The position numbers were made by a program, and so were the translations under genes. From the IMG/VR virus record IMGVR_UViG_2648501669_000007: a stretch of 12,784 nt of DNA, one strand, 5' to 3'. The notes under the pieces are model-generated. The model was not told the DNA's origin. It did no database searches and saw nothing but the letters and a program-made list of their open reading frames with translations. Shown here piece by piece: positions 1 to 12,348 of this stretch (position 1 is the stretch's first letter; every line of letters begins with the position of its first letter). This DNA is from a virus. Its lineage: Duplodnaviria; Heunggongvirae; Uroviricota; Caudoviricetes.

Positions 1-113
1 TTTAGTTGACCACAACAAAGTGCATTTATCATCTCCATAAAACAAAACCCGCCGTAGCGAGTTCAGATAAAATAAATCCCCGCGAGTGCGAGGATTGTTA
101 TGTAATATTGGGT

Positions 114-395
114 TTAATCATCTATATGTTTTGTACAGAGAGGGCAAGTATCGTTTCCACCGTACTCGTGATAATAATTTTGCACGGTATCAGTCATTTC
201 TCGCACATTGCAGAATGGGGATTTGTCTTCATTAGACTTATAAACCTTCATGGAATATTTGTATGCCGACTCTATATCTATACCTTCATCTACATAAACA
301 CCTTCGTGATGTCTGCATGGAGACAAGACACCGGATCTGCACAACATTGATAACGCCCAATCTTTTTGCTCAGACTCTAACTCATTGATACGCAT
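114..395 (-). CDS. ea8.5: Ea8.5 protein (lambda early-left accessory gene), 93 aa
   Basis: Intact 93-aa ORF in track; sequence MRINELESEQKDW... recognised as lambda Ea8.5; position relative to ea22 as in lambda. Confidence 0.88.
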   Translation of the reverse strand: MRINELESEQKDWALSMLCRSGVLSPCRHHEGVYVDEGIDIESAYKYSMKVYKSNEDKSPFCNVREMTDTVQNYYHEYGGNDTCPLCTKHIDD

Positions 396-586
396 TTATA
401 AACTCCTTGCAATGTATGTCGTTTCAGCTAAACGGTATCAGCAATGTTTATGTAAAGAAACAGTAAGATAATACTCAACCCGATGTTTGAGTACGGTCAT
501 CATCTGACACTACAGACTCTGGCATCGCTGTGAAGACGACGCGAAATTCAGCATTTTCACAAGCGTTATCTTTTACAAAACCGATC

Positions 587-1135
587 TCACTCTCCTTTGA
601 TGCAAATGCCAGCGTCAGACATCATATGCAGATACTCACCTGCATCCTGAACCCATTGACCTCCAACCCCGTAATAGCGATGCGTAGTGATGTCGATAGT
701 TACTAACGGGTCTTGTTCGATTAACTGCCGCAGAAACTCTTCCAGGTCACCAGTGCAGTGCTTGATAACAGGAGTCTTCCCAGGATGGCGAACAACAAGA
801 AACTGGTTTCCGTCTTCACGGACTTCGTTGCTTTCCAGTTTAGCAATACGCTTACTCCCATCCGAGATAACACCTTCGTAATACTCACGCTGCTCGTTGA
901 GTTTTGATTTTGCTGTTTCAAGCTCAACACGCAGTTTCCCTACTGTTAGCGCAATATCCTCGTTCTCCTAGTCGCGGCGTTTGATGTATTGCTGGTTTCT
1001 TTCCCGTTCATCCAGCAGTTCCAGCACAATCGATGGTGTTACCAATTCATGGAAAAGGTCTGCGTCAAATCCCCAGTCGTCATGCATTGCCTGCTCTGCC
1101 GCTTCACGCAGTGCCTGAGAGTTAATTTCGCTCAC
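587..1135 (-). pseudogene. ea22: ea22 homolog, 182 codons, interrupted by in-frame TAG at codon 56
   Basis: GTG start at 1133-1135 overlapping orf73 stop; frame runs 182 codons to TGA at 587-589; codon 56 (968-970) reads TAG, so no long ORF appears in the track; flanking residues ...IKRRD*ENEDIALTVGKLRVE... recalled as lambda Ea22. Confidence 0.8.
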
Positions 1136-1353
1136 TTCGAACCTCTCTGTTTACTGATAAGTTCCAGATCCTCCTGGCAACTTGCACAAGTCCGACAACC
1201 CTGAACGGCCAAGCGTCTTCGTTCATCTATCGGATCGCCACACTCACAACAATGAGTGGCAGATATAGCCTGGTGGTTCAGACGGCGCATTTTTATTGCT
1301 GTGTTGCGCTGTAATTCTTCAATTTCTGATGCTGAATCAATGATGTCTGCCAT
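1132..1353 (-). CDS. 73-aa TraR/DksA-like C4 zinc-finger protein (lambda orf73 equivalent)
   Basis: Intact 73-aa ORF; CxxC-(17)-CxxC motif (CCECGDPIDERRRLAVQGCRTCASC) typical of TraR/DksA family; stop overlaps ea22 start. Confidence 0.8.
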   Translation of the reverse strand: MADIIDSASEIEELQRNTAIKMRRLNHQAISATHCCECGDPIDERRRLAVQGCRTCASCQEDLELISKQRGSK

Positions 1354-1408
1354 CTTTCATTAATCCCTGAATTGTTGGTTAATACGCTTGAGGGTGAATG
1401 CGAATAAT

Positions 1409-1429
1409 AAAAAAGGAGCCTGTAGCTCC
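1409..1429 (-). terminator. Intrinsic terminator-like hairpin on the leftward transcript (possibly a lambda tL terminator)
   Basis: Stem GGAGC/GCTCC (1415-1419 / 1425-1429) followed on the minus strand by a T6 run (plus-strand A6 at 1409-1414); lies between two leftward ORFs. Confidence 0.5.
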
Positions 1430-1451
1430 ATGATGATTTTGTTTTTCATGC

Positions 1452-1733
1452 TCACCGTTCCTTAAAGACGCCGTTTAACATGCCGATCGCCAGGCTTAAA
1501 TGAGTCGGTGTGAATCCCATCAGCGTTACCGTTTCGCGGTGCTTCTTCAGTACGCTACGGCAAATGTCATCGACGTTTTTATCCGGAAACTGCTGTCTGA
1601 CTTTTTTGATTTCAGAATTAGCCTGACGGGCAATACTGCGAAGGGCGTTTTCTTGCTGAGGTGTCATTGAACAAGTCCCATGTCGGCAAGCATAAGCACA
1701 CAGAATATGAAGCCCGCTGCCAGAAAAATGCAT
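1452..1733 (-). CDS. Hypothetical small protein in the lambda orf61 region (93 aa from the first ATG; 71 aa if started at MTPQQ, 1452-1667)
   Basis: ORF in track; non-repetitive composition; the MTPQQ start at 1665-1667 overlaps the stop of an upstream 27-codon ORF (ATGA); an in-frame TGA at 1734-1736 separates it from an ATG at 1761-1763. Confidence 0.5.
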   Translation of the reverse strand: MHFSGSGLHILCAYACRHGTCSMTPQQENALRSIARQANSEIKKVRQQFPDKNVDDICRSVLKKHRETVTLMGFTPTHLSLAIGMLNGVFKER

Positions 1734-1747
1734 TCAGTGGTTGTCAT
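1664..1747 (-). CDS. Possible 27-aa hydrophobic peptide (MTTTECIFLAAGFIFCVLMLADMGLVQ)
   Basis: ATG at 1745-1747 overlaps the orf63 stop (ATGA) and its stop overlaps the next ATG (ATGA), suggesting translational coupling; strongly hydrophobic; not in the track because it is short. Confidence 0.3.
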   Translation of the reverse strand: MTTTECIFLAAGFIFCVLMLADMGLVQ

Positions 1748-1935
1748 ACCTGGTCTCTCTCATCTGCTTCTGCTTTCGCCACCATCATTTCCAGCTTTTG
1801 TGAAAGGGATGCGGCTAACGTATGAAATTCTTCGTCTGTTTCTACTGGTATTGGCACAAACCTGACTCCAATTTGAGCGAGGCTATGTGCCATCTCAATG
1901 CTCGTTCTTAACTCAACAGGAGATGCTTTGTGCAT
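1744..1935 (-). CDS. Lambda orf63-like protein, 63 aa
   Basis: Intact 63-aa ORF in track; size and position match lambda orf63 between orf60a and the orf61 region. Confidence 0.8.
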   Translation of the reverse strand: MHKASPVELRTSIEMAHSLAQIGVRFVPIPVETDEEFHTLAASLSQKLEMMVAKAEADERDQV

Positions 1936-2090
1936 ACAGCTCCCCGTTTATTATTTATCTCCTCAGCCAGCCGCTGTGCTTTCAGTGGATTTCGGGTAAC
2001 AGAAAGGCCGGGAAATACCCAGCCTCGCTTTGTAACGGAGTAGACGAAAGTGATCGCACCTACCCGGATATTATCGTGAGGATGCTTCAT
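1908..2090 (-). CDS. Lambda orf60a-like protein, 60 aa
   Basis: Track ORF 1908-2096; start chosen at the second ATG (2088-2090), which overlaps the exo stop as ATGA and gives 60 aa. Confidence 0.7.
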
Positions 2091-2767
2091 CGCCATTGTT
2101 CCCCAAATACAAAACCAATTTCAGCCAGTGCCTCGTCCATTTTTTCGATGAACTCCGGCACCATCTCGTCAAAACTCGCCATGTAATTTTCATCCCGCTC
2201 AACCACGACATAATGCAGGCCTTCACGCTTCATTCGTGGGTCATAGTTGGCAAAGTACCAGGCATCTTTTCGTGTCACCCACATGCTGTACTGCACCTGG
2301 GCCATGTAAGCCGACTTTATGGCCTCGAAACCACCGAGCCGGAACTTCATGAAATCCCGGGAGGTAAACGGGCATTTCAGCTCAAGGCCGTTGCCGTCAC
2401 TGCATAAACCATCGGGAGAGCAGGCGGTGCGCATACTTTCGTCGCGATAGATGATCGGGGATTCAGTAACATTCACGCCGGAAGTAAACTCAAACAGGGC
2501 TCTGGCGTCGTTCTCGTACTGTTTTCCCCAGGCCAGTGCTTTAGCGTTAACTTCCGGAGCCACACCGGTGCAAACCTCGGCAAGCAGGGTGTGGAAGTAG
2601 GACATTTTCATGTCAGGCCACTTCTTTCCTGAGCGGGGCTTTGCTATCACGTTGTGAACTTCTGAAGCGGTGATGACGCCGAGCCGTAATTTGTGCCATG
2701 CATCATCCCCCTGTTCGACAGCTCTCACGTCGATCCCGGTACGCTGCAGGATAATGTCCGGTGTCAT
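2087..2767 (-). CDS. exo: Lambda exonuclease (Red alpha), 226 aa
   Basis: Intact 226-aa [43 protein letters not shown]... recognised as lambda Exo; ATGA overlap with bet. Confidence 0.97.
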
Positions 2768-3549
2768 GCTGCCACCTTCTGCTCAGTGGCTTTCTGTTTC
2801 AGGAATCCGAGAGCTTTCACTGCTTCGGCCTGTGTCAGTTCTGACGATGCGCGAATGTCGCGGCGAAATATCTGGGAACAGAGCGGCAATAAGTCGTCAT
2901 CCCATGTTTTATCCAGGGCAATCAGCAGAGTGTTAATCTCCTGCATGGTTTCATCGTTAACCGGAGTGATGTCGCGTTCCGGCTGACGTTCTGCAGTGTA
3001 TGCGGTATTTTCGACAATGCGCTCGGCTTCATCCTTGTCATAGATACCAGCAAATCCGAAGGCCAGACGGGCACACTGAATCATGGCTTTATGACGTAAC
3101 ATCCGTTTGGGATGCGACTGCCACGGCCCCGTGATTTCTCTGCCTTCGCGGGTTTTGAATGGTTCGCGGCGGCATTCATCCATCCACTCGGTAACGCAGA
3201 TCGGATGATTGCGGTCCTTGCGGTAAATCCGGCATGTGCAGGATTCATTGTCCTGCTCAAAGTCCATACCATCAAACTGCTGGTTTTCATTGATGATGCG
3301 GGACCAGCCATCAACGCCCACCACCGGAACGATGCCGTTCTGCTTATCAGGGAAGGCGTAAATTTCTTTCGTCCACGGATTAAGGCCGTACTGGTTGGCG
3401 ACGATCAACAATGCGATGAACTGCGCATCGCTGGCATCACCTTTAAATGCCGTCTGGCGAAGAGTGGTGATCAGTTCCTGTGGGTCGACAGAATCCATGC
3501 CGACACGTTCAGCCAGCTTCCCTGCCAGCGTTGCGAGTGCTGTACTCAT
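2764..3549 (-). CDS. bet: Bet single-strand annealing protein (Red beta), 261 aa
   Basis: Intact 261-aa [40 protein letters not shown]... recognised as lambda Bet. Confidence 0.97.
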
Positions 3550-3554
3550 CCGTT

Positions 3555-3972
3555 TTATACCTCTGAATCAATATCAACCTGGTGGTGAGCAATGGTTTCA
3601 ACCATGTACCGGATGTGTTCTGCCATGCGCTCCTGAAACTCAACATCGTCATCAAACGCACGGGTAATGGCTTTTTTGCTGGCCCCGTGGCGTTGCAAAT
3701 GATCGATGCATAGCGATTCAAACAGGTGCTGGGGCAGGCCTTTTTCCATGTCGTCTGCCAGTTCTGCCTCTTTCTCTTCACGGGCGATCTGCTGGTAGTG
3801 ACGCGCCCAGCTCTGAGCCTCAAGACGATCCTAAATGTAATAAGCGTTCATGGCTGAACTCCTGAAAATGGCTGTGAAAATATCGCCCGCGAAATGCCAG
3901 GCTGATTAGGAAAACAGGAAAGGGGGTTAGTGAATGCTTTTGCTTGATCTCAGTTTCTGTATTAATATCCAT
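3555..3972 (-). pseudogene. gam: gam (RecBCD inhibitor) homolog, disrupted: TAG at codon 7 of the GamS frame and the long-form start out of frame
   Basis: Track holds only the C-terminal 64 aa ([26 protein letters not shown]...). Upstream in the same frame: ATG 3849-3851, MNAYYI, then TAG at 3831-3833. The [13 protein letters not shown] at 3970-3972 is 121 nt upstream, so it is in a different frame. Confidence 0.85.
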
Positions 3973-4070
3973 TTTTTATAAGCGTCGACGGCCTCACGAA
4001 ACATCTTTTCATCGCCAATAAAAGTGGCGATAGTGAATTTAGTCTGGATAGCCATAATTGTTTGATCCAT
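3927..4070 (-). CDS. kil: Kil (host cell-division inhibitor), 47 aa
   Basis: [47 protein letters not shown] forms the C-terminal 47 aa of track ORF 3927-4196; start overlaps the cIII 3' end as in lambda. Confidence 0.85.
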
Positions 4071-4203
4071 TTTTCGGGACTCCTGGCTGATTAAGTATGT
4101 CGATAAGGCGTTTCCATCCGTCACGTAATTTACGGGTGATTCGTTCAAGTAAAGATTCGGAAGGGCAGCCAGCAACAGGCCACCCTGCAATGGCATATTG
4201 CAT
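4039..4203 (-). CDS. cIII: CIII (FtsH inhibitor that stabilises CII), 54 aa
   Basis: Hand translation from ATG 4201-4203 gives [54 protein letters not shown] then TAA; too short for the track. Confidence 0.9.
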   Translation of the reverse strand: MQYAIAGWPVAGCPSESLLERITRKLRDGWKRLIDILNQPGVPKNGSNNYGYPD

Positions 4204-4275
4204 GGTGTGCTCCTTATTTATACATAACGAAAAACGCCTCGAGTGAAGCGTAATTGGTATGCGGTAACGCCGCGC

Positions 4276-4644
4276 TCAGGCGGCTTTGATAGTCATATCA
4301 TCTGGATCAAATATTCCTGATGTATCGATATCGGTAATTCTTATTCCTTCGCTACCATCCATTGGAGGCCATCCTTCCTGACCATTTCCATCATTCCAGT
4401 CGAACTCACACACAACACCATATGCATTTAATTCGCTTGAAATTGCTATAAGCAGAGCATGTTGCGCCAGCATGATTAATACAGCATTTAATACAGAGCC
4501 GTGTTTATTGAGTCGGTATTCAGAGTCTGACCAGAAATTATTAATCTGGTGAAGTTTTTCCTCTGTCATTACGTCATGGTCGATTTCAATTTCTATTGAT
4601 GCTTTCCAGTCGTAATCAATGATGTATTTTTTGATGTTTGACAT
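4276..4644 (-). CDS. ea10: Ea10 protein, 122 aa
   Basis: Intact 122-aa ORF; size and position between cIII and ral match lambda ea10. Confidence 0.85.
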   Translation of the reverse strand: MSNIKKYIIDYDWKASIEIEIDHDVMTEEKLHQINNFWSDSEYRLNKHGSVLNAVLIMLAQHALLIAISSELNAYGVVCEFDWNDGNGQEGWPPMDGSEGIRITDIDTSGIFDPDDMTIKAA

Positions 4645-4662
4645 CTATTCATATCCTCATAG

Positions 4663-4690
4663 ATAAAAAATCGCCCTCACACTGGAGGGC
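4663..4690 (-). terminator. Intrinsic terminator-like hairpin on the leftward transcript, between ral and ea10
   Basis: Stem GCCCTC/GAGGGC (4673-4678 / 4685-4690) followed on the minus strand by a T6 run (plus-strand A6 at 4665-4670). Confidence 0.45.
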
Positions 4691-4826
4691 AAAGAAGATT
4701 TCCAATAATCAGAACAAGTCGGCTCCTGTTTAGTTACGAGCGACATTGCTCCGTGTATTCACTCGTTGGAATGAATACACAGTGCAGTGTTTATTCTGTT
4801 ATTTATGCCAAAAATAAAGGCCACTA

Positions 4827-5027
4827 TCAGGCAGCTTTGTTGTTCTGTTTACCAAGTTCTCTGGCAATCATTGCCGTCGTTCGTATTGCCCATTTATCGA
4901 CATATTTCCCATCTTCCATTACAGGAAACATTTCTTCAGGCTTAACCATGCATTCCGATTGCAGCTTGCATCCATTGCATCGCTTGAATTGTCCACACCA
5001 TTGATTTTTATCAATAGTCGTAGTCAT
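4827..5027 (-). CDS. ral: Ral restriction-alleviation protein, 66 aa
   Basis: Intact 66-aa ORF MTTTIDKNQWCGQFKRCNGCKLQSECMVKPEEMF... recognised as lambda Ral. Confidence 0.9.
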   Translation of the reverse strand: MTTTIDKNQWCGQFKRCNGCKLQSECMVKPEEMFPVMEDGKYVDKWAIRTTAMIARELGKQNNKAA

Positions 5028-5097
5028 ACGGATAGTCCTGGTATTGTTCCATCACATCCTGAGGATGCTCTTCGAACTCTTCAAATTCTTCTTCCAT
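5011..5097 (-). CDS. orf28-like acidic peptide (MEEEFEEFEEHPQDVMEQYQDYPYDYDY), 28 aa
   Basis: Hand translation from ATG 5095-5097 to TGA 5011-5013; overlaps the ral start as lambda orf28 does; below track threshold. Confidence 0.55.
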   Translation of the reverse strand: MEEEFEEFEEHPQDVMEQYQDYPYDYDY

Positions 5098-5221
5098 ATA
5101 TCACCTTAAATAGTGGATTGCGGTAGTAAAGATTGTGCCTGTCTTTTAACCACATCAGGCTCGGTGGTTCTCGTGTACCCCTACAGCGAGAAATCGGATA
5201 AACTATTACAACCCCTACAGT

Positions 5222-5776
5222 TTGATGAGTATAGAAATGGATCCACTCGTTATTCTCGGACGAGTGTTCAGTAATGAACCTCTGGAGAGAACCATGTATA
5301 TGATCGTTATCTGGGTTGGACTTCTGCTTTTAAGCCCAGATAACTGGCCTGAATATGTTAATGAGAGAATCGGTATTCCTCATGTGTGGCATGTTTTCGT
5401 CTTTGCTCTTGCATTTTCGCTAGCAATTAATGTGCATCGATTATCAGCTATTGCCAGCGCCAGATATAAGCGATTTAAGCTAAGAAAACGCATTAAGATG
5501 CAAAACGATAAAGTGCGATCAGTAATTCAAAACCTTACAGAAGAGCAATCTATGGTTTTGTGCGCAGCCCTTAATGAAGGCAGGAAGTATGTGGTTACAT
5601 CAAAACAATTCCCATACATTAGTGAGTTGATTGAGCTTGGTGTGTTGAACAAAACTTTTTCCCGATGGAATGGGAAGCATATATTATTCCCTATTGAGGA
5701 TATTTACTGGACTGAATTAGTTGCCAGCTATGATCCATATAATATTGAGATAAAGCCAAGGCCAATATCTAAGTAA
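5222..5776 (+). CDS. sieB: SieB superinfection-exclusion protein (membrane protein), 184 aa
   Basis: Intact 184-aa ORF with hydrophobic segments; only rightward gene in the pL operon region; ends one base before the N stop codon, as in lambda. Confidence 0.88.
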   Translation: MMSIEMDPLVILGRVFSNEPLERTMYMIVIWVGLLLLSPDNWPEYVNERIGIPHVWHVFVFALAFSLAINVHRLSAIASARYKRFKLRKRIKMQNDKVRSVIQNLTEEQSMVLCAALNEGRKYVVTSKQFPYISELIELGVLNKTFSRWNGKHILFPIEDIYWTELVASYDPYNIEIKPRPISK

Positions 5777-6100
5777 CTAGATAAGAGGAATCGATTTTCC
5801 CTTAATTTTCTGGCGTCCACTGCATGTTATGCCGCGTTCGCCAGGCTTGCTGTACCATGTGCGCTGATTCTTGCGCTCAATACGTTGCAGGTTGCTTTCA
5901 ATCTGTTTGTGGTATTCAGCCAGCACTGTAAGGTCTATCGGATTTAGTGCGCTTTCTACTCGTGATTTCGGTTTGCGATTCAGCGAGAGAATAGGGCGGT
6001 TAACTGGTTTTGCGCTTACCCCAACCAACAGGGGATTTGCTGCTTTCCATTGAGCCTGTTTCTCTGCGCGACGTTCGCGGCGGCGTGTTTGTGCATCCAT
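5777..6100 (-). CDS. N: N transcription antiterminator, 107 aa
   Basis: Track ORF 5777-6178 contains MDAQTRRRERRAEKQAQWKAANPLLVGVSAKPVNRP... (arginine-rich motif); start assigned to ATG 6098-6100. Confidence 0.95.
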   Translation of the reverse strand: MDAQTRRRERRAEKQAQWKAANPLLVGVSAKPVNRPILSLNRKPKSRVESALNPIDLTVLAEYHKQIESNLQRIERKNQRTWYSKPGERGITCSGRQKIKGKSIPLI

Positions 6101-6258
6101 CTGGATTCTTCTGTCAGTTAGCTTTGGTGGTGTGTGGCAGTTGTAGTCCTGAACGAAAACCCCCCGCGATTGGCACATTGGCAGCTAATCCGGAATCGCA
6201 CTTACGGCCAATGCTTCGTTTCGTATCACACACCCCAAAGCCTTCTGCTTTGAATGCT

Positions 6259-6289
6259 GCCCTTCTTCAGGGCTTAATTTTTAAGAGCG
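6259..6289 (-). promoter_or_regulatory. nutL (boxB hairpin plus boxA) N-utilisation site
   Basis: Minus strand reads CGCTCTTA (boxA, 6282-6289) and GCCCTGAAGAAGGGC (boxB, 6259-6273), downstream of the pL start. Confidence 0.8.
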
Positions 6290-6319
6290 TCACCTTCATG
6301 GTGGTCAGTGCGTCCTGCT

Positions 6320-6391
6320 GATGTGCTCAGTATCACCGCCAGTGGTATTTATGTCAACACCGCCAGAGATAATTTATCACCGCAGATGGTT
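6320..6391 (-). promoter_or_regulatory. pL promoter with operators OL1, OL2 and OL3
   Basis: OL1 TATCACCGCCAGTGGTA 6331-6347, OL2 CAACACCGCCAGAGATA 6355-6371, OL3 TATCACCGCAGATGGTT 6375-6391; minus-strand -35 TTGACA (6352-6357) and -10 GATACT (6329-6334). Confidence 0.9.
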
Positions 6392-6540
6392 ATCTGTATG
6401 TTTTTTATATGAATTTATTTTTTGCAGGGGGGCATTGTTTGGTAGGTGAGAGATCTGAATTGCTATGTTTAGTGAGTTGTATCTATTTATTTTTCAATAA
6501 ATACAATTGGTTATGTGTTTTGGGGGCGATCGTGAGGCAA

Positions 6541-6566
6541 AGAAAACCCGGCGCTGAGGCCGGGTT
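6541..6566 (-). terminator. Intrinsic terminator after rexB (tImm-like)
   Basis: GC-rich hairpin AACCCGGC-CTCAGC-GCCGGGTT on the minus strand followed by TTTCTTT, immediately past the rexB stop. Confidence 0.6.
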
Positions 6567-6999
6567 ATTCTTGTTCTCTGGTCAAATTATATAGTTGGAA
6601 AACAAGGATGCATATATGAATGAACGATGCAGAGGCAATGCCGATGGCGATAGTGGGTATCATGTAGCCGCTTATGCTGGAAAGAAGCAATAACCCGCAG
6701 AAAAACAAAGCTCCAAGCTCAACAAAACTAAGGGCATAGACAATAACTACCGATGTCATATACCCATACTCTCTAATCTTGGCCAGTCGGCGCGTTCTGC
6801 TTCCGATTAGAAACGTCAAGGCAGCAATCAGGATTGCAATCATGGTTCCTGCATATGATGACAATGTCGCCCCAAGACCATCTCTATGAGCTGAAAAAGA
6901 AACACCAGGAATGTAGTGGCGGAAAAGGAGATAGCAAATGCTTACGATAACGTAAGGAATTATTACTATGTAAACACCAGGCATGATTCTGTTCCGCAT
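6565..6999 (-). CDS. rexB: RexB (membrane ion-channel component of Rex abortive infection/exclusion), 144 aa
   Basis: Intact 144-aa highly hydrophobic ORF MRNRIMPGVYIVIIPYVIVSICYLLF... recognised as lambda RexB. Confidence 0.95.
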   Translation of the reverse strand: MRNRIMPGVYIVIIPYVIVSICYLLFRHYIPGVSFSAHRDGLGATLSSYAGTMIAILIAALTFLIGSRTRRLAKIREYGYMTSVVIVYALSFVELGALFFCGLLLLSSISGYMIPTIAIGIASASFIHICILVFQLYNLTREQE

Positions 7000-7014
7000 A
7001 ATTACTCCTGATAA

Positions 7015-7854
7015 TTAATCCTTAACTTTGCCCACCTGCCTTTTAAAACATTCCAGTATATCACTTTTCATTCTTGCGTAGCAATATGCCATCTCTTCAG
7101 CTATCTCAGCATTGGTGACCTTGTTCAGAGGCGCTGAGAGATGGCCTTTTTCTGATAGATAATGTTCTGTTAAAATATCTCCGGCCTCATCTTTTGCCCG
7201 CAGGCTAATGTCTGAAAATTGAGGTGACGGGTTAAAAATAATATCCTTGGCAACCTTTTTTATATCCCTTTTAAATTTTGGCTTAATGACTATATCCAAT
7301 GAGTCAAAAAGCTCCCCTTCAATATCTGTTGCCCCTAAGACCTTTAATATATCGCCAAATACAGGTAGCTTGGCTTCTACCTTCACCGTTGTTCGGCCGA
7401 TGAAATGCATATGCATAACATCGTCTTTGGTGGTTCCCCTCATCAGTGGCTCTATCTGAACGCGCTCTCCACTGCTTAATGACATTCCTTTCCCGATTAA
7501 AAAATCTGTCAGATCGGATGTGGTCGGCCCGAAAACAGTTCTGGCAAAACCAATGGTGTCGCCTTCAACAAACAAAAAAGATGGGAATCCCAATGATTCG
7601 TCATCTGCGAGGCTGTTCTTAATATCTTCAACTGAAGCTTTAGAGCGATTTATCTTCTGAACCAGACTCTTGTCATTTGTTTTGGTAAAGAGAAAAGTTT
7701 TTCCATCGATTTTATGAATATACAAATAATTGGAGCCAACCTGCAGGTGATGATTATCAGCCAGCAGAGAATTAAGGAAAACAGACAGGTTTATTGAGCG
7801 CTTATCTTTCCCTTTATTTTTGCTGCGGTAAGTCGCATAAAAACCATTCTTCAT
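7015..7854 (-). CDS. rexA: RexA (sensor/activator component of Rex exclusion), 279 aa
   Basis: Intact 279-aa ORF MKNGFYATYRSKNKGKDKRSINLSVFLNSLLADNHHLQ... recognised as lambda RexA; sits in the cI-rexA-rexB operon. Confidence 0.95.
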   Translation of the reverse strand: MKNGFYATYRSKNKGKDKRSINLSVFLNSLLADNHHLQVGSNYLYIHKIDGKTFLFTKTNDKSLVQKINRSKASVEDIKNSLADDESLGFPSFLFVEGDTIGFARTVFGPTTSDLTDFLIGKGMSLSSGERVQIEPLMRGTTKDDVMHMHFIGRTTVKVEAKLPVFGDILKVLGATDIEGELFDSLDIVIKPKFKRDIKKVAKDIIFNPSPQFSDISLRAKDEAGDILTEHYLSEKGHLSAPLNKVTNAEIAEEMAYCYARMKSDILECFKRQVGKVKD

Positions 7855-7966
7855 AATTCAATCCATTTACTATGTTATGTTCTGAGGGGAGTGAAAATTC
7901 CCCTAATTCGATGAAGATTCTTGCTCAATTGTTATCAGCTATGCGCCGACCAGAACACCTTGCCGA

Positions 7967-8683
<717 letters not shown>

Positions 8684-8690
8684 TTAAATC

Positions 8691-8764
8691 TATCACCGCA
8701 AGGGATAAATATCTAACACCGTGCGTGTTGACTATTTTACCTCTGGCGGTGATAATGGTTGCAT
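8691..8764. promoter_or_regulatory. Right operator region: OR3, OR2, OR1 with divergent pRM and pR promoters
   Basis: OR3 TATCACCGCAAGGGATA 8691-8707, OR2 TAACACCGTGCGTGTTG 8714-8730, OR1 TACCTCTGGCGGTGATA 8738-8754; pR -35 TTGACT 8728-8733 and -10 GATAAT 8751-8756. Confidence 0.92.
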
Positions 8765-8771
8765 GTACTAA

Positions 8772-8981
<210 letters not shown>

Positions 8982-8988
8982 ATAACCC

Positions 8989-9020
8989 CGCTCTTACACA
9001 TTCCAGCCCTGAAAAAGGGC
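8989..9020 (+). promoter_or_regulatory. nutR (boxA CGCTCTTACA plus boxB hairpin GCCCTGAAAAAGGGC)
   Basis: boxA at 8989-8998 and boxB at 9006-9020 just downstream of cro; the rho-dependent tR1 region follows. Confidence 0.8.
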
Positions 9021-9074
9021 ATCAAATTAAACCACACCTATGGTGTATGCATTTATTTGCATACATTCAATCAA

Positions 9075-9121
9075 TTGTTATCTAAGGAAATACTTACATA
9101 TGGTTCGTGCAAACAAACGCA
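9075..9121 (-). promoter_or_regulatory. pRE (CII-activated promoter for repressor establishment)
   Basis: CII recognition repeat TTGC-N6-TTGC on the minus strand within the first cII codons (about 9105-9118), oriented leftward. Confidence 0.6.
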
Positions 9122-9393
9122 ACGAGGCTCTACGAATCGAGAGTGCGTTGCTTAACAAAATCGCAATGCTTGGAACTGAGAAGACAGCGGAAGCTGTGGG
9201 CGTTGATAAGTCGCAGATCAGCAGGTGGAAGAGGGACTGGATTCCAAAGTTCTCAATGCTGCTTGCTGTTCTTGAATGGGGGGTCGTTGACGACGACATG
9301 GCTCGATTGGCGCGACAAGTTGCTGCGATTCTCACCAATAAAAAACGCCCGGCGGCAACCGAGCGTTCTGAACAAATCCAGATGGAGTTCTGA
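9100..9393 (+). CDS. cII: CII transcriptional activator, 97 aa
   Basis: Track ORF 9040-9393 contains MVRANKRNEALRIESALLNKIAMLGTEKTAEAVGVDKSQISRWKRDWIPKFSMLLAVLEWG...; start assigned to ATG 9100-9102. Confidence 0.95.
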   Translation: MVRANKRNEALRIESALLNKIAMLGTEKTAEAVGVDKSQISRWKRDWIPKFSMLLAVLEWGVVDDDMARLARQVAAILTNKKRPAATERSEQIQMEF

Positions 9394-9415
9394 GGTCATT
9401 ACTGGATCTATCAAC
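9339..9415 (-). ncRNA. oop: Probable oop antisense RNA overlapping the cII 3' end (coordinates approximate)
   Basis: Minus-strand hairpin plus T6 (GTTGCCGCCGGGCGTTTTTT) at about 9339-9358 inside the cII 3' end; placement follows known lambda organisation. Confidence 0.5.
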
Positions 9416-9425
9416 AGGAGTCATT

Positions 9426-10325
9426 ATGACAAATACAGCAAAAATACTCAACTTCGGCAGAGGTAACTTTGCCGGACAGGAGCGTAATGTGGCAGATCTC
9501 GATGATGGTTACGCCAGACTATCAAATATGCTGCTTGAGGCTTATTCGGGCGCAGATCTGACCAAGCGACAGTTTAAAGTGCTGCTTGCCATTCTGCGTA
9601 AAACCTATGGGTGGAATAAACCAATGGACAGAATCACCGATTCTCAACTTAGCGAGATTACAAAGTTACCTGTCAAACGGTGCAATGAAGCCAAGTTAGA
9701 ACTCGTCAGAATGAATATTATCAAGCAGCAAGGCGGCATGTTTGGACCAAATAAAAACATCTCAGAATGGTGCATCCCTCAAAACGAGGGAAAATCCCCT
9801 AAAACGAGGGATAAAACATCCCTCAAATTGGGGGATTGCTATCCCTCAAAACAGGGGGACACAAAAGACACTATTACAAAAGAAAAAAGAAAAGATTATT
9901 CGTCAGAGAATTCTGGCGAATCCTCTGACCAGCCAGAAAACGACCTTTCTGTGGTGAAACCGGATGCTGCAATTCAGAGCGGCAGCAAGTGGGGGACAGC
10001 AGAAGACCTGACCGCCGCAGAGTGGATGTTTGACATGGTGAAGACTATCGCACCATCAGCCAGAAAACCGAATTTTGCTGGGTGGGCTAACGATATCCGC
10101 CTGATGCGTGAACGTGACGGACGTAACCACCGCGACATGTGTGTGCTGTTCCGCTGGGCATGCCAGGACAACTTCTGGTCCGGTAACGTGCTGAGCCCGG
10201 CCAAACTCCGCGATAAGTGGACCCAACTCGAAATCAACCGTAACAAGCAACAGGCAGGCGTGACAGCCAGCAAACCAAAACTCGACCTGACAAACACAGA
10301 CTGGATTTACGGGGTGGATCTATGA
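9426..10325 (+). CDS. O: O replication initiator, 299 aa
   Basis: Intact 299-aa ORF MTNTAKILNFGRGNFAGQERNVADLDDGYARLSNMLLEAYSGADLTKRQF... recognised as lambda O; contains the ori iterons. Confidence 0.97.
   Translation: MTNTAKILNFGRGNFAGQERNVADLDDGYARLSNMLLEAYSGADLTKRQFKVLLAILRKTYGWNKPMDRITDSQLSEITKLPVKRCNEAKLELVRMNIIKQQGGMFGPNKNISEWCIPQNEGKSPKTRDKTSLKLGDCYPSKQGDTKDTITKEKRKDYSSENSGESSDQPENDLSVVKPDAAIQSGSKWGTAEDLTAAEWMFDMVKTIAPSARKPNFAGWANDIRLMRERDGRNHRDMCVLFRWACQDNFWSGNVLSPAKLRDKWTQLEINRNKQQAGVTASKPKLDLTNTDWIYGVDL
9774..9900. repeat. ori-lambda: four about 19-bp iterons (O binding sites) followed by an AT-rich unwinding region
   Basis: Direct repeats ATCCCTCAAAACGAGGG, ATCCCCTAAAACGAGGG, ACATCCCTCAAATTGGGGG, ATCCCTCAAAACAGGGGG at 9774-9860, then an A-rich tract 9861-9900, all inside O. 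Confidence 0.88.
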
Positions 10326-11023
10326 AAAACATCGCCGCACAGATGGTTAACTTTGACCGTGAGCAGATGCGTCGGATCGCCAACAACATGCCGGAACAGT
10401 ACGACGAAAAGCCGCAGGTACAGCAGGTAGCGCAGATCATCAACGGTGTGTTCAGCCAGTTACTGGCAACTTTCCCGGCGAGCCTGGCTAACCGTGACCA
10501 GAACGAAGTGAACGAAATCCGTCGCCAGTGGGTTCTGGCTTTTCGGGAAAACGGGATCACCACGATGGAACAGGTTAACGCAGGAATGCGCGTAGCCCGT
10601 CGGCAGAATCGACCATTTCTGCCATCACCCGGGCAGTTTGTTGCATGGTGCCGGGAAGAAGCATCCGTTACCGCCGGACTGCCAAACGTCAGCGAGCTGG
10701 TTGATATGGTTTACGAGTATTGCCGGAAGCGAGGCCTGTATCCGGATGCGGAGTCTTATCCGTGGAAATCAAACGCGCACTACTGGCTGGTTACCAACCT
10801 GTATCAGAACATGCGGGCCAATGCGCTTACTGATGCGGAATTACGCCGTAAGGCCGCAGATGAGCTTGTCCATATGACTGCGAGAATTAACCGTGGTGAG
10901 GCGATCCCTGAACCAGTAAAACAACTTCCTGTTATGGGCGGTAGACCTCTAAATCGTGCACAGGCTCTGGCGAAGATCGCAGAAATTAAAGCTAAGTTCG
11001 GACTGAAAGGAGCAAGTGTATGA
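10322..11023 (+). CDS. P: P replication protein (DnaB helicase loader), 233 aa
   Basis: Intact 233-aa ORF MKNIAAQMVNFDREQMRRIANNMPEQYDEKPQVQQVAQIINGVF...; ATGA overlap with the O stop. Confidence 0.97.
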   Translation: MKNIAAQMVNFDREQMRRIANNMPEQYDEKPQVQQVAQIINGVFSQLLATFPASLANRDQNEVNEIRRQWVLAFRENGITTMEQVNAGMRVARRQNRPFLPSPGQFVAWCREEASVTAGLPNVSELVDMVYEYCRKRGLYPDAESYPWKSNAHYWLVTNLYQNMRANALTDAELRRKAADELVHMTARINRGEAIPEPVKQLPVMGGRPLNRAQALAKIAEIKAKFGLKGASV

Positions 11024-11310
11024 CGGGCAAAGAGGCAATTATTCATTACCTGGGGACGCATAATAGCTTCTGTGCGCCGGACGTTGCCGCGCTAACAGGC
11101 GCAACAGTAACCAGCATAAATCAGGCCGCGGCTAAAATGGCACGGGCAGGTCTTCTGGTTATCGAAGGTAAGGTCTGGCGAACGGTGTATTACCGGTTTG
11201 CTACCAGGGAAGAACGGGAAGGAAAGATGAGCACGAACCTGATTTTTAAGGAGTGTCGCCAGAGTGCCGCGATGAAACGGGTATTGGCGGTATATAGAGT
11301 TAAAAGATGA
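11020..11310 (+). CDS. ren: Ren protein (relieves Rex exclusion), 96 aa
   Basis: Intact 96-aa ORF MTGKEAIIHYLGTHNSFCAPDVAALTGATVTSINQAAAKMARAGLLVIEG...; ATGA overlap with the P stop. Confidence 0.9.
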   Translation: MTGKEAIIHYLGTHNSFCAPDVAALTGATVTSINQAAAKMARAGLLVIEGKVWRTVYYRFATREEREGKMSTNLIFKECRQSAAMKRVLAVYRVKR

Positions 11311-11335
11311 CCATCTATATTACTGAGCTAATAAC

Positions 11336-11366
11336 AGGCCTGCTGGTAATCGCAGGCCTTTTTATT
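11336..11366 (+). terminator. Intrinsic terminator (tR2-like) between ren and ninB
   Basis: Stem AGGCCTGC/GCAGGCCT (11336-11343 / 11352-11359) followed by TTTTTATTT. Confidence 0.7.
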
Positions 11367-11383
11367 TGGGGGAGAGGGAAGTC

Positions 11384-11824
11384 ATGAAAAAACTAACCTT
11401 TGAAATTCGATCTCCAGCACATCAGCAAAACGCTATTCACGCAGTACAGCAAATCCTTCCAGACCCAACCAAACCAATCGTAGTAACCATTCAGGAACGC
11501 AACCGTAGCTTAGACCAAAACAGGAAGCTATGGGCCTGCTTAGGTGACGTCTCTCGTCAGGTTGAATGGCATGGTCGCTGGCTGGATGCAGAAAGCTGGA
11601 AGTGTGTGTTTACCGCAGCATTAAAGCAGCAGGATGTTGTTCCTAACCTTGCCGGGAATGGCTTTGTGGTAATAGGCCAGTCAACCAGCAGGATGCGTGT
11701 AGGCGAATTTGCGGAGCTATTAGAGCTTATACAGGCATTCGGTACAGAGCGTGGCGTTAAGTGGTCAGACGAAGCGAGACTGGCTCTGGAGTGGAAAGCG
11801 AGATGGGGAGATCGGGCTGCATGA
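11384..11824 (+). CDS. ninB: NinB (Orf recombination mediator), 146 aa
   Basis: Track ORF 11366-11824; start assigned to ATG 11384 after RBS GGAGAGGGAA; MKKLTFEIRSPAHQQNAIHAVQQILPDPTKPIVVTIQERNRSLDQNRKLW... recognised as lambda NinB. Confidence 0.9.
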   Translation: MKKLTFEIRSPAHQQNAIHAVQQILPDPTKPIVVTIQERNRSLDQNRKLWACLGDVSRQVEWHGRWLDAESWKCVFTAALKQQDVVPNLAGNGFVVIGQSTSRMRVGEFAELLELIQAFGTERGVKWSDEARLALEWKARWGDRAA

Positions 11825-12348
11825 CTATCAAATCAAATACGCCAGCACACGACAAGGACTGCTGGCAAACGCCGCTTTGGCTTTTTGATGCACTGGATAT
11901 TGAGTTTGGATTCTGGCTGGATTCGGCAGCGAGCGACAAAAATGCTCTGTGTGCTCACTGGCTAACTGAGGCCGACGACGCGCTCAATTCTGAGTGGGTA
12001 AGCCACGGTGCAATCTGGAATAACCCACCGTACAGCAATATCAGGCCGTGGGTGGAAAAAGCCGCTGAGCAGTGCATACAACAGCGACAGACGGTAGTTA
12101 TGCTTGTGCCAGAGGATATGTCAGTCGGATGGTTCAGCAAGGCTCTGGAGAGTGTCGACGAAGTTCGCATTATCACTGATGGACGGATTAATTTTATCGA
12201 ACCATCGACAGGGTTGGAGAAGAAGGGAAACAGCAAAGGCTCCATGCTGCTGATTTGGCGACCGTTCATCAGTCCTCGACGGATGTTTACTACCGTATCC
12301 AAAGCGGCATTGATGGCGATCGGGCAGGGCGTCAGGAGGGCGGCATGA
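11821..12348 (+). CDS. Phage-type DNA N6-adenine methyltransferase (Dam-like, orphan), 175 aa
   Basis: ATG 11821 overlaps the ninB stop (ATGA); catalytic NPPY(S) motif (WNNPPYSN) and N-terminal [24 protein letters not shown] typical of the phage Dam family; occupies the slot of lambda ninC/ninD. Confidence 0.85.

Follow-up and report, generated by a model that had tools for sequence, protein, structure and literature searches.

A single C-to-T transition turns codon 7 (CAG, Gln) of the 98-codon gam frame of a λ-immunity lambdoid element into an amber codon (TAG), next to exo and bet genes that are intact. As judged from its sequence, the locus is a gam pseudogene, or amber allele, beside an intact Red pair. 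It is likely to be a sporadic gam-null allele produced by this one substitution, with a Red system that would lack its RecBCD inhibitor in a non-suppressor host. The whole stretch of DNA analysed, referred to below as the window, comprises 12,784 nucleotides of IMG/VR virus record IMGVR_UViG_2648501669_000007.

Origin and mosaic structure of the element

The window corresponds to a lambdoid element of λ immunity. Phage λ matches it over 93% of its length at approximately 99.1–99.2% identity; in the pairwise alignment, window positions 18–11824 and positions 29278–41084 of λ (NC_001416) are 99.15% identical, with 98 mismatches and two single-base gaps. These differences are unevenly distributed along the window. 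The N, rexAB, cI, cro, cII, O and P proteins are 100% identical to those of λ, and only two nucleotide differences from λ occur in 4661–10932. The block at 1208–4660, which extends from orf61 to ea10 and contains exo, bet and gam, diverges from λ by about 2.5%, and its boundary with 4661–11824 is sharp. The exo, bet and gam alleles of this divergent block are common among Escherichia coli prophages. Across 451 nt of the gam region there is one mismatch to E. coli SLK172, the closest complete genome, and to several poultry isolates, compared with seven differences from λ.

Positions 1–11135 match contig JRGD01000078.1 (L149; 12,580 bp), which belongs to the draft assembly GCA_000754845.1, at 100% identity, the TAG in gam included. 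The window exceeds this contig by 204 bp and was probably taken from a sister record. The wild-prophage alleles of the red region, together with the identity to a contig of a draft assembly, identify the element by sequence as a λ-immunity lambdoid prophage of a draft bacterial genome and not laboratory λ.

Several further features of the element were recorded. At 11821–12348 (plus strand) the ninC gene of λ is replaced by a gene for a 175-residue phage DNA N-6-adenine methyltransferase (Pfam Dam PF05869, E = 9e-65), and the window beyond 12414 is likewise non-λ sequence. In the orf61 region (1452–1763, minus strand) codon 10 is TGA (1736–1734) when compared with λ, and a 1 bp deletion is present near 1601; together, these changes give a 93-residue ORF (1452–1733) beginning at Met11, with a weak, sub-threshold Pfam match to a ZapA-like family. 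Because ORFs of 93 residues are also called at the orf61 position in other prophages (e.g. L128 and L159), this one looks like a natural alternative gene form. The ren allele is indexed in 307 blocks of the gene collection. No tRNA genes were found in the window, Chi sites are absent both from the window and from the matching λ segment, and a promoter and terminator scan of 3400–4300 returned nothing relevant.

The gam locus and its Red neighbours

The features of the locus, in the direction of transcription, are as follows.

3927–4070, minus strand: kil, intact, 47 residues, two substitutions from λ
3820–3972, minus strand: 50-codon ORF from the upstream ATG (3972–3970), the out-of-frame counterpart of the λ GamL extension, overlapping kil
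3865–3868, minus strand: run of four T (four A on the plus strand), three T in λ; a common polymorphism
3859–3863, minus strand: Shine–Dalgarno sequence AGGAG, 7 nt upstream of the GamS ATG, read directly
3851–3849, minus strand: GamS ATG, read directly, encoding MNAYYI before the TAG
3831–3833, minus strand: TAG (amber) in place of CAG (Gln7), a C-to-T transition on the gene strand at 3833, equivalent to λ 33094
3555–3851, minus strand: gam (GamS) reading frame, 98 codons plus TAA, amber at codon 7
3555–3749, minus strand: residual 64-codon ORF (Met35–Val98 of GamS), the sole listed ORF in the gam frame
2764–3549, minus strand: bet, intact, 261 residues, 99.6% identical to λ with one substitution; Pfam RecT PF03837, E = 2.7e-33
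2087–2767, minus strand: exo, intact, 226 residues, 97.8% identical to λ with five substitutions; Pfam YqaJ PF09588, E = 2.5e-30

The coordinates given in the first-pass annotation for the ATG, the TAG, the upstream ATG 121 nt away, the T run and the 64-codon ORF were all exact on the minus strand. The kil, gam and bet genes are collinear with those of λ. The gam gene is about 97% identical to that of λ and, the amber aside, its frame differs from λ GamS by two substitutions (L22I and S61A). Once Gln is put back at codon 7, the frame matches the whole of the Pfam Gam model (PF06064, positions 1–98, E = 3.4e-65) and the Gam structures 5MBV and 2UUZ (E = 2.5e-61). As it stands, the frame does not run uninterrupted from the AGGAG and ATG to the stop codon, as the homologous genes for proteins of 97–100 residues do, since TAG occupies codon 7.

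No in-frame ATG is present 40 codons upstream of the GamS start. The upstream ATG lies within kil and, at an offset of 121 nt, is out of frame with gam. The 50-codon ORF that begins there has no Pfam match; an equivalent is annotated in phage 06-3462. The gene index has no entry for its exact product, in which Leu46 would be diagnostic of the TAG allele.

As the first-pass annotation had stated, exo and bet are free of stops; they overlap by 4 nt (ATGA, 2764–2767) and constitute a Red module. The exo allele occurs very often in E. coli prophages (7,691 blocks in the gene collection), and a Gam protein of 98 residues is present in all ten neighbourhoods listed for it. The bet gene has its own GAGG sequence 10 nt upstream of its ATG. 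The λ pL operon is read under N antitermination. Given these two features, the amber in gam would be expected to exert little polarity on bet and exo; some loss of gam–bet translational coupling may occur.

Codon 7 in related loci

The window was aligned with λ NC_001416, PA28 and 06-3462. Codon 7 is CAG in all three and TAG in the window, and the T at 3833 is the sole mismatch to SLK172 across the 451 nt. The comparison was extended to 124 related loci, comprising λ, PA28, 06-3462, SLK172 and 120 IMG/VR loci fetched with a 31-nt pattern that takes in the ribosome-binding site and codons 1–6. Without exception (124/124), codon 7 reads CAG in these loci, which bears out the earlier proposal of a Gln-to-amber change. 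The AGGAG sequence is exactly conserved in the IMG/VR loci, as it is part of the pattern with which they were fetched. The 98-codon gam frame is intact in nearly all of the related loci, where the contig allowed it to be followed. A chance calculation is not applicable to a single-base variant such as this one.

Expected consequence for Gam and RecBCD

Position 7 itself is variable in the Gam family, in which Q, P, Y and F are found. The residues that follow it are more constrained: D8, E11, W15, Y19, E25, E26, E28 and L31-A32-D33 are invariant within residues 8–34. An AlphaFold (AF2) model of Gam, calculated from the family alignment, has moderate confidence (mean pLDDT 73.7) and places helix 1 at residues 2–36, followed by helices at 41–54, 59–68 and 70–97. 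In the cryo-EM structure of the complex with RecBCD, the long N-terminal helix of GamS inserts in the 3′-ssDNA channel of RecB (PMC5218532).

The first canonical in-frame start after the TAG is Met35, 82 nt downstream. The residual 64-codon ORF that begins there matches positions 35–98 of PF06064 and is without the predicted helix 2–36. No Shine–Dalgarno sequence lies at a usable distance from it; the nearby GAGG, 17 nt upstream of Met35, is too far away for such use.

With Gln7 of the 98-codon gene replaced by an amber codon, ribosomes that initiate at the AGGAG and ATG would, in a non-suppressor host, release a peptide of six residues. Met35 is the earliest point at which translation could restart, and a product begun there would have none of the N-terminal helix. 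The helix that plugs the ssDNA channel of RecB would be missing, and no functional RecBCD inhibitor would be expected. From the exo–bet–gam module of its pL operon the phage would thus be predicted to make Exo and Beta without an inhibitor of RecBCD, which is also the outcome that the first-pass annotation had proposed. We infer the loss of Gam activity, and the phenotypic consequences that would follow from it, from the sequence and the predicted model, as the conserved N-terminal helix cannot be made. A λ phage without Gam is viable and replicates and packages less well, since RecBCD attacks the tails of the rolling circle.

Other gam knockouts and possible selection

The 64-residue Gam product is called in 221 blocks of the gene index. 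The lesions in the ten listed loci with this product are independent in origin, and the codon 7 TAG allele is in none of these ten loci as inspected. The lesions found in gam in these loci and in the IMG/VR loci are given below.

L126 and L130: IS3-family insertions
L128 and L134: 1 bp deletion in a run of G
L129: Q13 amber
L132: E11 amber
L131: W15 opal
L133: E30 ochre
L089 (IMG/VR): Q41 amber
L053 (IMG/VR): deletion at about codon 62 that fuses gam to int (integrase)

Two NCBI drafts (FZJD01000001.1, L125, and FZFE01000037.1, L127) have split gam calls arising from an apparent partial duplication of gam with an N base; this has the look of an artefact of assembly or scaffolding and not of a biological feature. 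In the loci with gam lesions, bet and exo (or an exo-type gene) are retained where present. The sporadic gam pseudogenes of E. coli prophages thus share with the window the module itself, the residual 64-residue C-terminal ORF and the retention of bet and exo; the position of the lesion, codon 7, is what differs here.

The number of independent N-terminal gam lesions in loci that have kept bet and exo could be taken to mean that such knockouts are selected, through escape from defences that guard RecBCD or through the shedding of a protein that is harmful when leaky. Published observations are in line with this. Among λ-vir escapers of retron Ec48, a gam frameshift was the sole mutation in five of six, and the sixth also had one (10.1101/2020.06.21.156273). 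P2 Old is evaded by Gam-less λ, and Gam by itself slightly impairs growth (PMC12445682). An anti-RecBCD gene is absent from 43 of 246 lambdoid Rec modules (Zheng et al., 2025; PMC12315714).

These cases resemble the window in part. In the Ec48 escapers and in the Gam-less λ that evades P2 Old, gam is lost, the rest is functional and RecBCD is uninhibited; the escapers carry laboratory-selected frameshifts, whereas the window has a nonsense substitution in a lysogen. The lambdoid phages without an anti-RecBCD gene likewise combine a recombinase and a nuclease with no RecBCD inhibitor, but in those phages the gene is missing altogether, whereas here it is present and freshly inactivated, with no enrichment of Chi in the window.

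The lesion rates argue against selection on gam. In the IMG/VR sample, which is small and unbiased, lesions were found in 2 of 110 gam, 3 of 91 bet and 2 of 88 exo genes, rates that are similar and show no enrichment specific to gam. The set of 64-residue-product loci is biased towards truncated gam, as it was found via a targeted search for such alleles, and no Chi sites that might compensate for the loss of Gam occur in the window. We therefore regard a selected knockout as unlikely. The lesion is most simply explained as a sporadic mutation of the kind that prophages accumulate, and the presence of a second nonsense allele in the same window, described below, fits a prophage that is accumulating nonsense mutations in accessory genes.

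Provenance of the amber codon

The second nonsense allele is in ea22, codon 56 of which (970–968, minus strand) is also changed from CAG to TAG, truncating ea22 to 55 residues. E. coli MB53, a Cuban poultry isolate, carries this Q56 amber too, and its ea22 has been annotated as a pseudogene containing an internal stop. Other carriers are a second complete genome (E. coli 2013C-3342, for which the 41-mer has one mismatch), IMG/VR contig L135 and a number of contigs from drafts or Logan. In those ea22-amber relatives whose contig reaches gam, codon 7 is CAG and gam is intact. On the evidence of these relatives, the ea22 amber was inherited as a natural allele, on the background of which the gam amber would have arisen later. 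A look-up by the 55-residue ea22 fragment led to the identical contig JRGD01000078.1.

The gam TAG allele was searched for separately. The exact pattern containing the TAG had no match in GTDB representative genomes, IMG/VR or JGI metagenomes, and a megablast search with a 41-mer centred on the TAG had none in 5,426 complete E. coli genomes (the gam region being present in 3,210 of them) or in 50,697 phage records. The allele is present in contig JRGD01000078.1, which is listed for two samples and one similar place; a gene caller run on this contig called only the 64-residue Gam fragment.

An allele confined to one lineage, and taken from a short draft contig, might be a sequencing or assembly error behind which the true gene is intact. 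A base-call error is nevertheless an unlikely source of the TAG, because the change is a substitution and not a homopolymer indel, because it stands in a deposited assembly, and because the ea22 nonsense allele of the same window is independently corroborated: its recurrence in independent assemblies, a complete genome among them, indicates that this assembly reports real nonsense alleles. The listing of the identical contig for two samples, plus the one similar place, and the occurrence of comparable natural gam nonsense alleles in other loci point the same way. An intact gene hidden by an error is accordingly rated as distinctly improbable. A nanopore error at a methylation motif, the GATC next to the TAG, was considered as well, but the short draft contig is probably older short-read data.

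Suppression and laboratory amber alleles

A change from CAG to TAG is the classic route to an amber mutation. It is the exact change that is reverted by the Gln-inserting supE suppressor, so the amber might be conditional, with full-length Gam made in a suppressor host or in the setting of a laboratory amber such as gam210. The suppressed product would probably work, as position 7 accommodates Q, P, Y and F, and Tyr is found there naturally. The second CAG-to-TAG change, in ea22, could be read in the same way. The laboratory gam ambers share with the window an amber codon in gam, for which a null phenotype is expected in an Su− host, and are restored by supE or supF; gam210 is suppressible by SuII and SuIII (PMC2082072).

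The background of the allele speaks against this explanation. Laboratory ambers are carried by laboratory λ, whereas here the red region is of wild-prophage type, with wild E. coli exo, bet and gam alleles in a natural prophage and red intact, as its closeness to SLK172 rather than to λ indicates. In the searchable literature, no nucleotide position for gam210 was found. The Cuban poultry isolate, whose prophage is riddled with insertion sequences, has the ea22 amber as well, which marks this amber as a natural allele, and the window contains no tRNA gene. A conditional amber from which full-length Gam is made is for these reasons considered very improbable. A reading of the two ambers as the product of mutagenesis or recoding was also considered and was rejected as the leading explanation, as the ea22 amber is common to unrelated natural isolates. 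The composite alternative, in which either the gam amber was selected in a Red+ Gam− prophage that evades abortive infection of the Ec48 or P2 Old type or both ambers are tolerated in a Gln-suppressor host, appears rather improbable.

The T run and the GamL extension

The first-pass annotation had described gam as doubly disrupted, by the amber codon and by a +1 insertion near the homopolymer. The first of these stands as a lesion; the second does not. The alignment with λ that had been proposed as a check gives CAG in λ where the window has TAG, and one T fewer in the run: the sequence is TATTTC in λ and CATTTTC in the window, PA28 and 06-3462. The four-T allele is the commonest state among the relatives (PA28, 06-3462, E. 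coli SLK172 and most of the IMG/VR loci), and the four-T relatives read here keep an intact Gam of 98 residues. The concern that the extra base might be a homopolymer artefact is moot, as the four-T state is shared with these relatives. A check against λ alone would have misled, because λ has the minority state of the T run.

Upstream sequence of sufficient length was available for 123 loci. An in-frame ATG is lacking upstream in 79 of these, and only 32 have the λ-type in-frame extension of 40 codons; in approximately half of the remaining loci the sequence upstream is altogether different and includes another kil-type gene. Phages of the four-T type cannot encode GamL. The gene product is annotated by PGAP as 98 residues in SLK172. 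In the Stx phages PA28 and 06-3462 (L002 and L003) the gam TAA is replaced by TAT, and Gam is extended by three residues and overlaps the bet start; in PA28 the annotated protein is accordingly one of 101 residues from the same ATG. This extension is probably benign.

The annotated gam product of λ is the 138-residue form. The Pfam Gam model has 98 positions and begins at the GamS Met, the solved Gam structures (2UUZ, 2UV1 and 5MBV) are all of the 98-residue protein, and Gam homologues down to 73% identity, from Escherichia, Salmonella, Citrobacter and Raoultella, are of 97–100 residues, with a few small clusters of 138 residues. GamS is thus indicated to be the conserved unit, and GamL a feature of the λ lineage. 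RecBCD is inhibited by either isoform upon expression, and the solved RecBCD complex contains GamS (PMC5218532).

Since the extra T is shared with relatives and the TAG is not, one lesion is indicated and not two. From this distribution the extra T is a majority natural polymorphism, and would remove just the non-conserved extension of the λ lineage. Inactivation of gam by two independent lesions can be put aside almost entirely: both differences exist relative to λ alone, with its 138-residue annotation, while the frameshift half is refuted by the four-T majority that keeps a 98-residue Gam, by the small share of loci with an in-frame extension and the unrelated upstream sequence in about half of the others, by the 98-residue protein of Pfam, the structures and the homologues across genera, and by the inhibition of RecBCD by GamS alone.

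Significance

The gam allele of the window is probably an ordinary sporadic knockout, and a new natural null allele of a classical and very well studied gene. Its analysis bears on annotation, in that use of the 138-residue GamL frame of λ as the reference leads to false 'frameshift' calls in the gam genes of lambdoid phages. A natural Exo+ Beta+ Gam− prophage of λ immunity, together with the independent gam knockouts collected here, would offer a means of asking whether defences that guard RecBCD select against Gam in nature.
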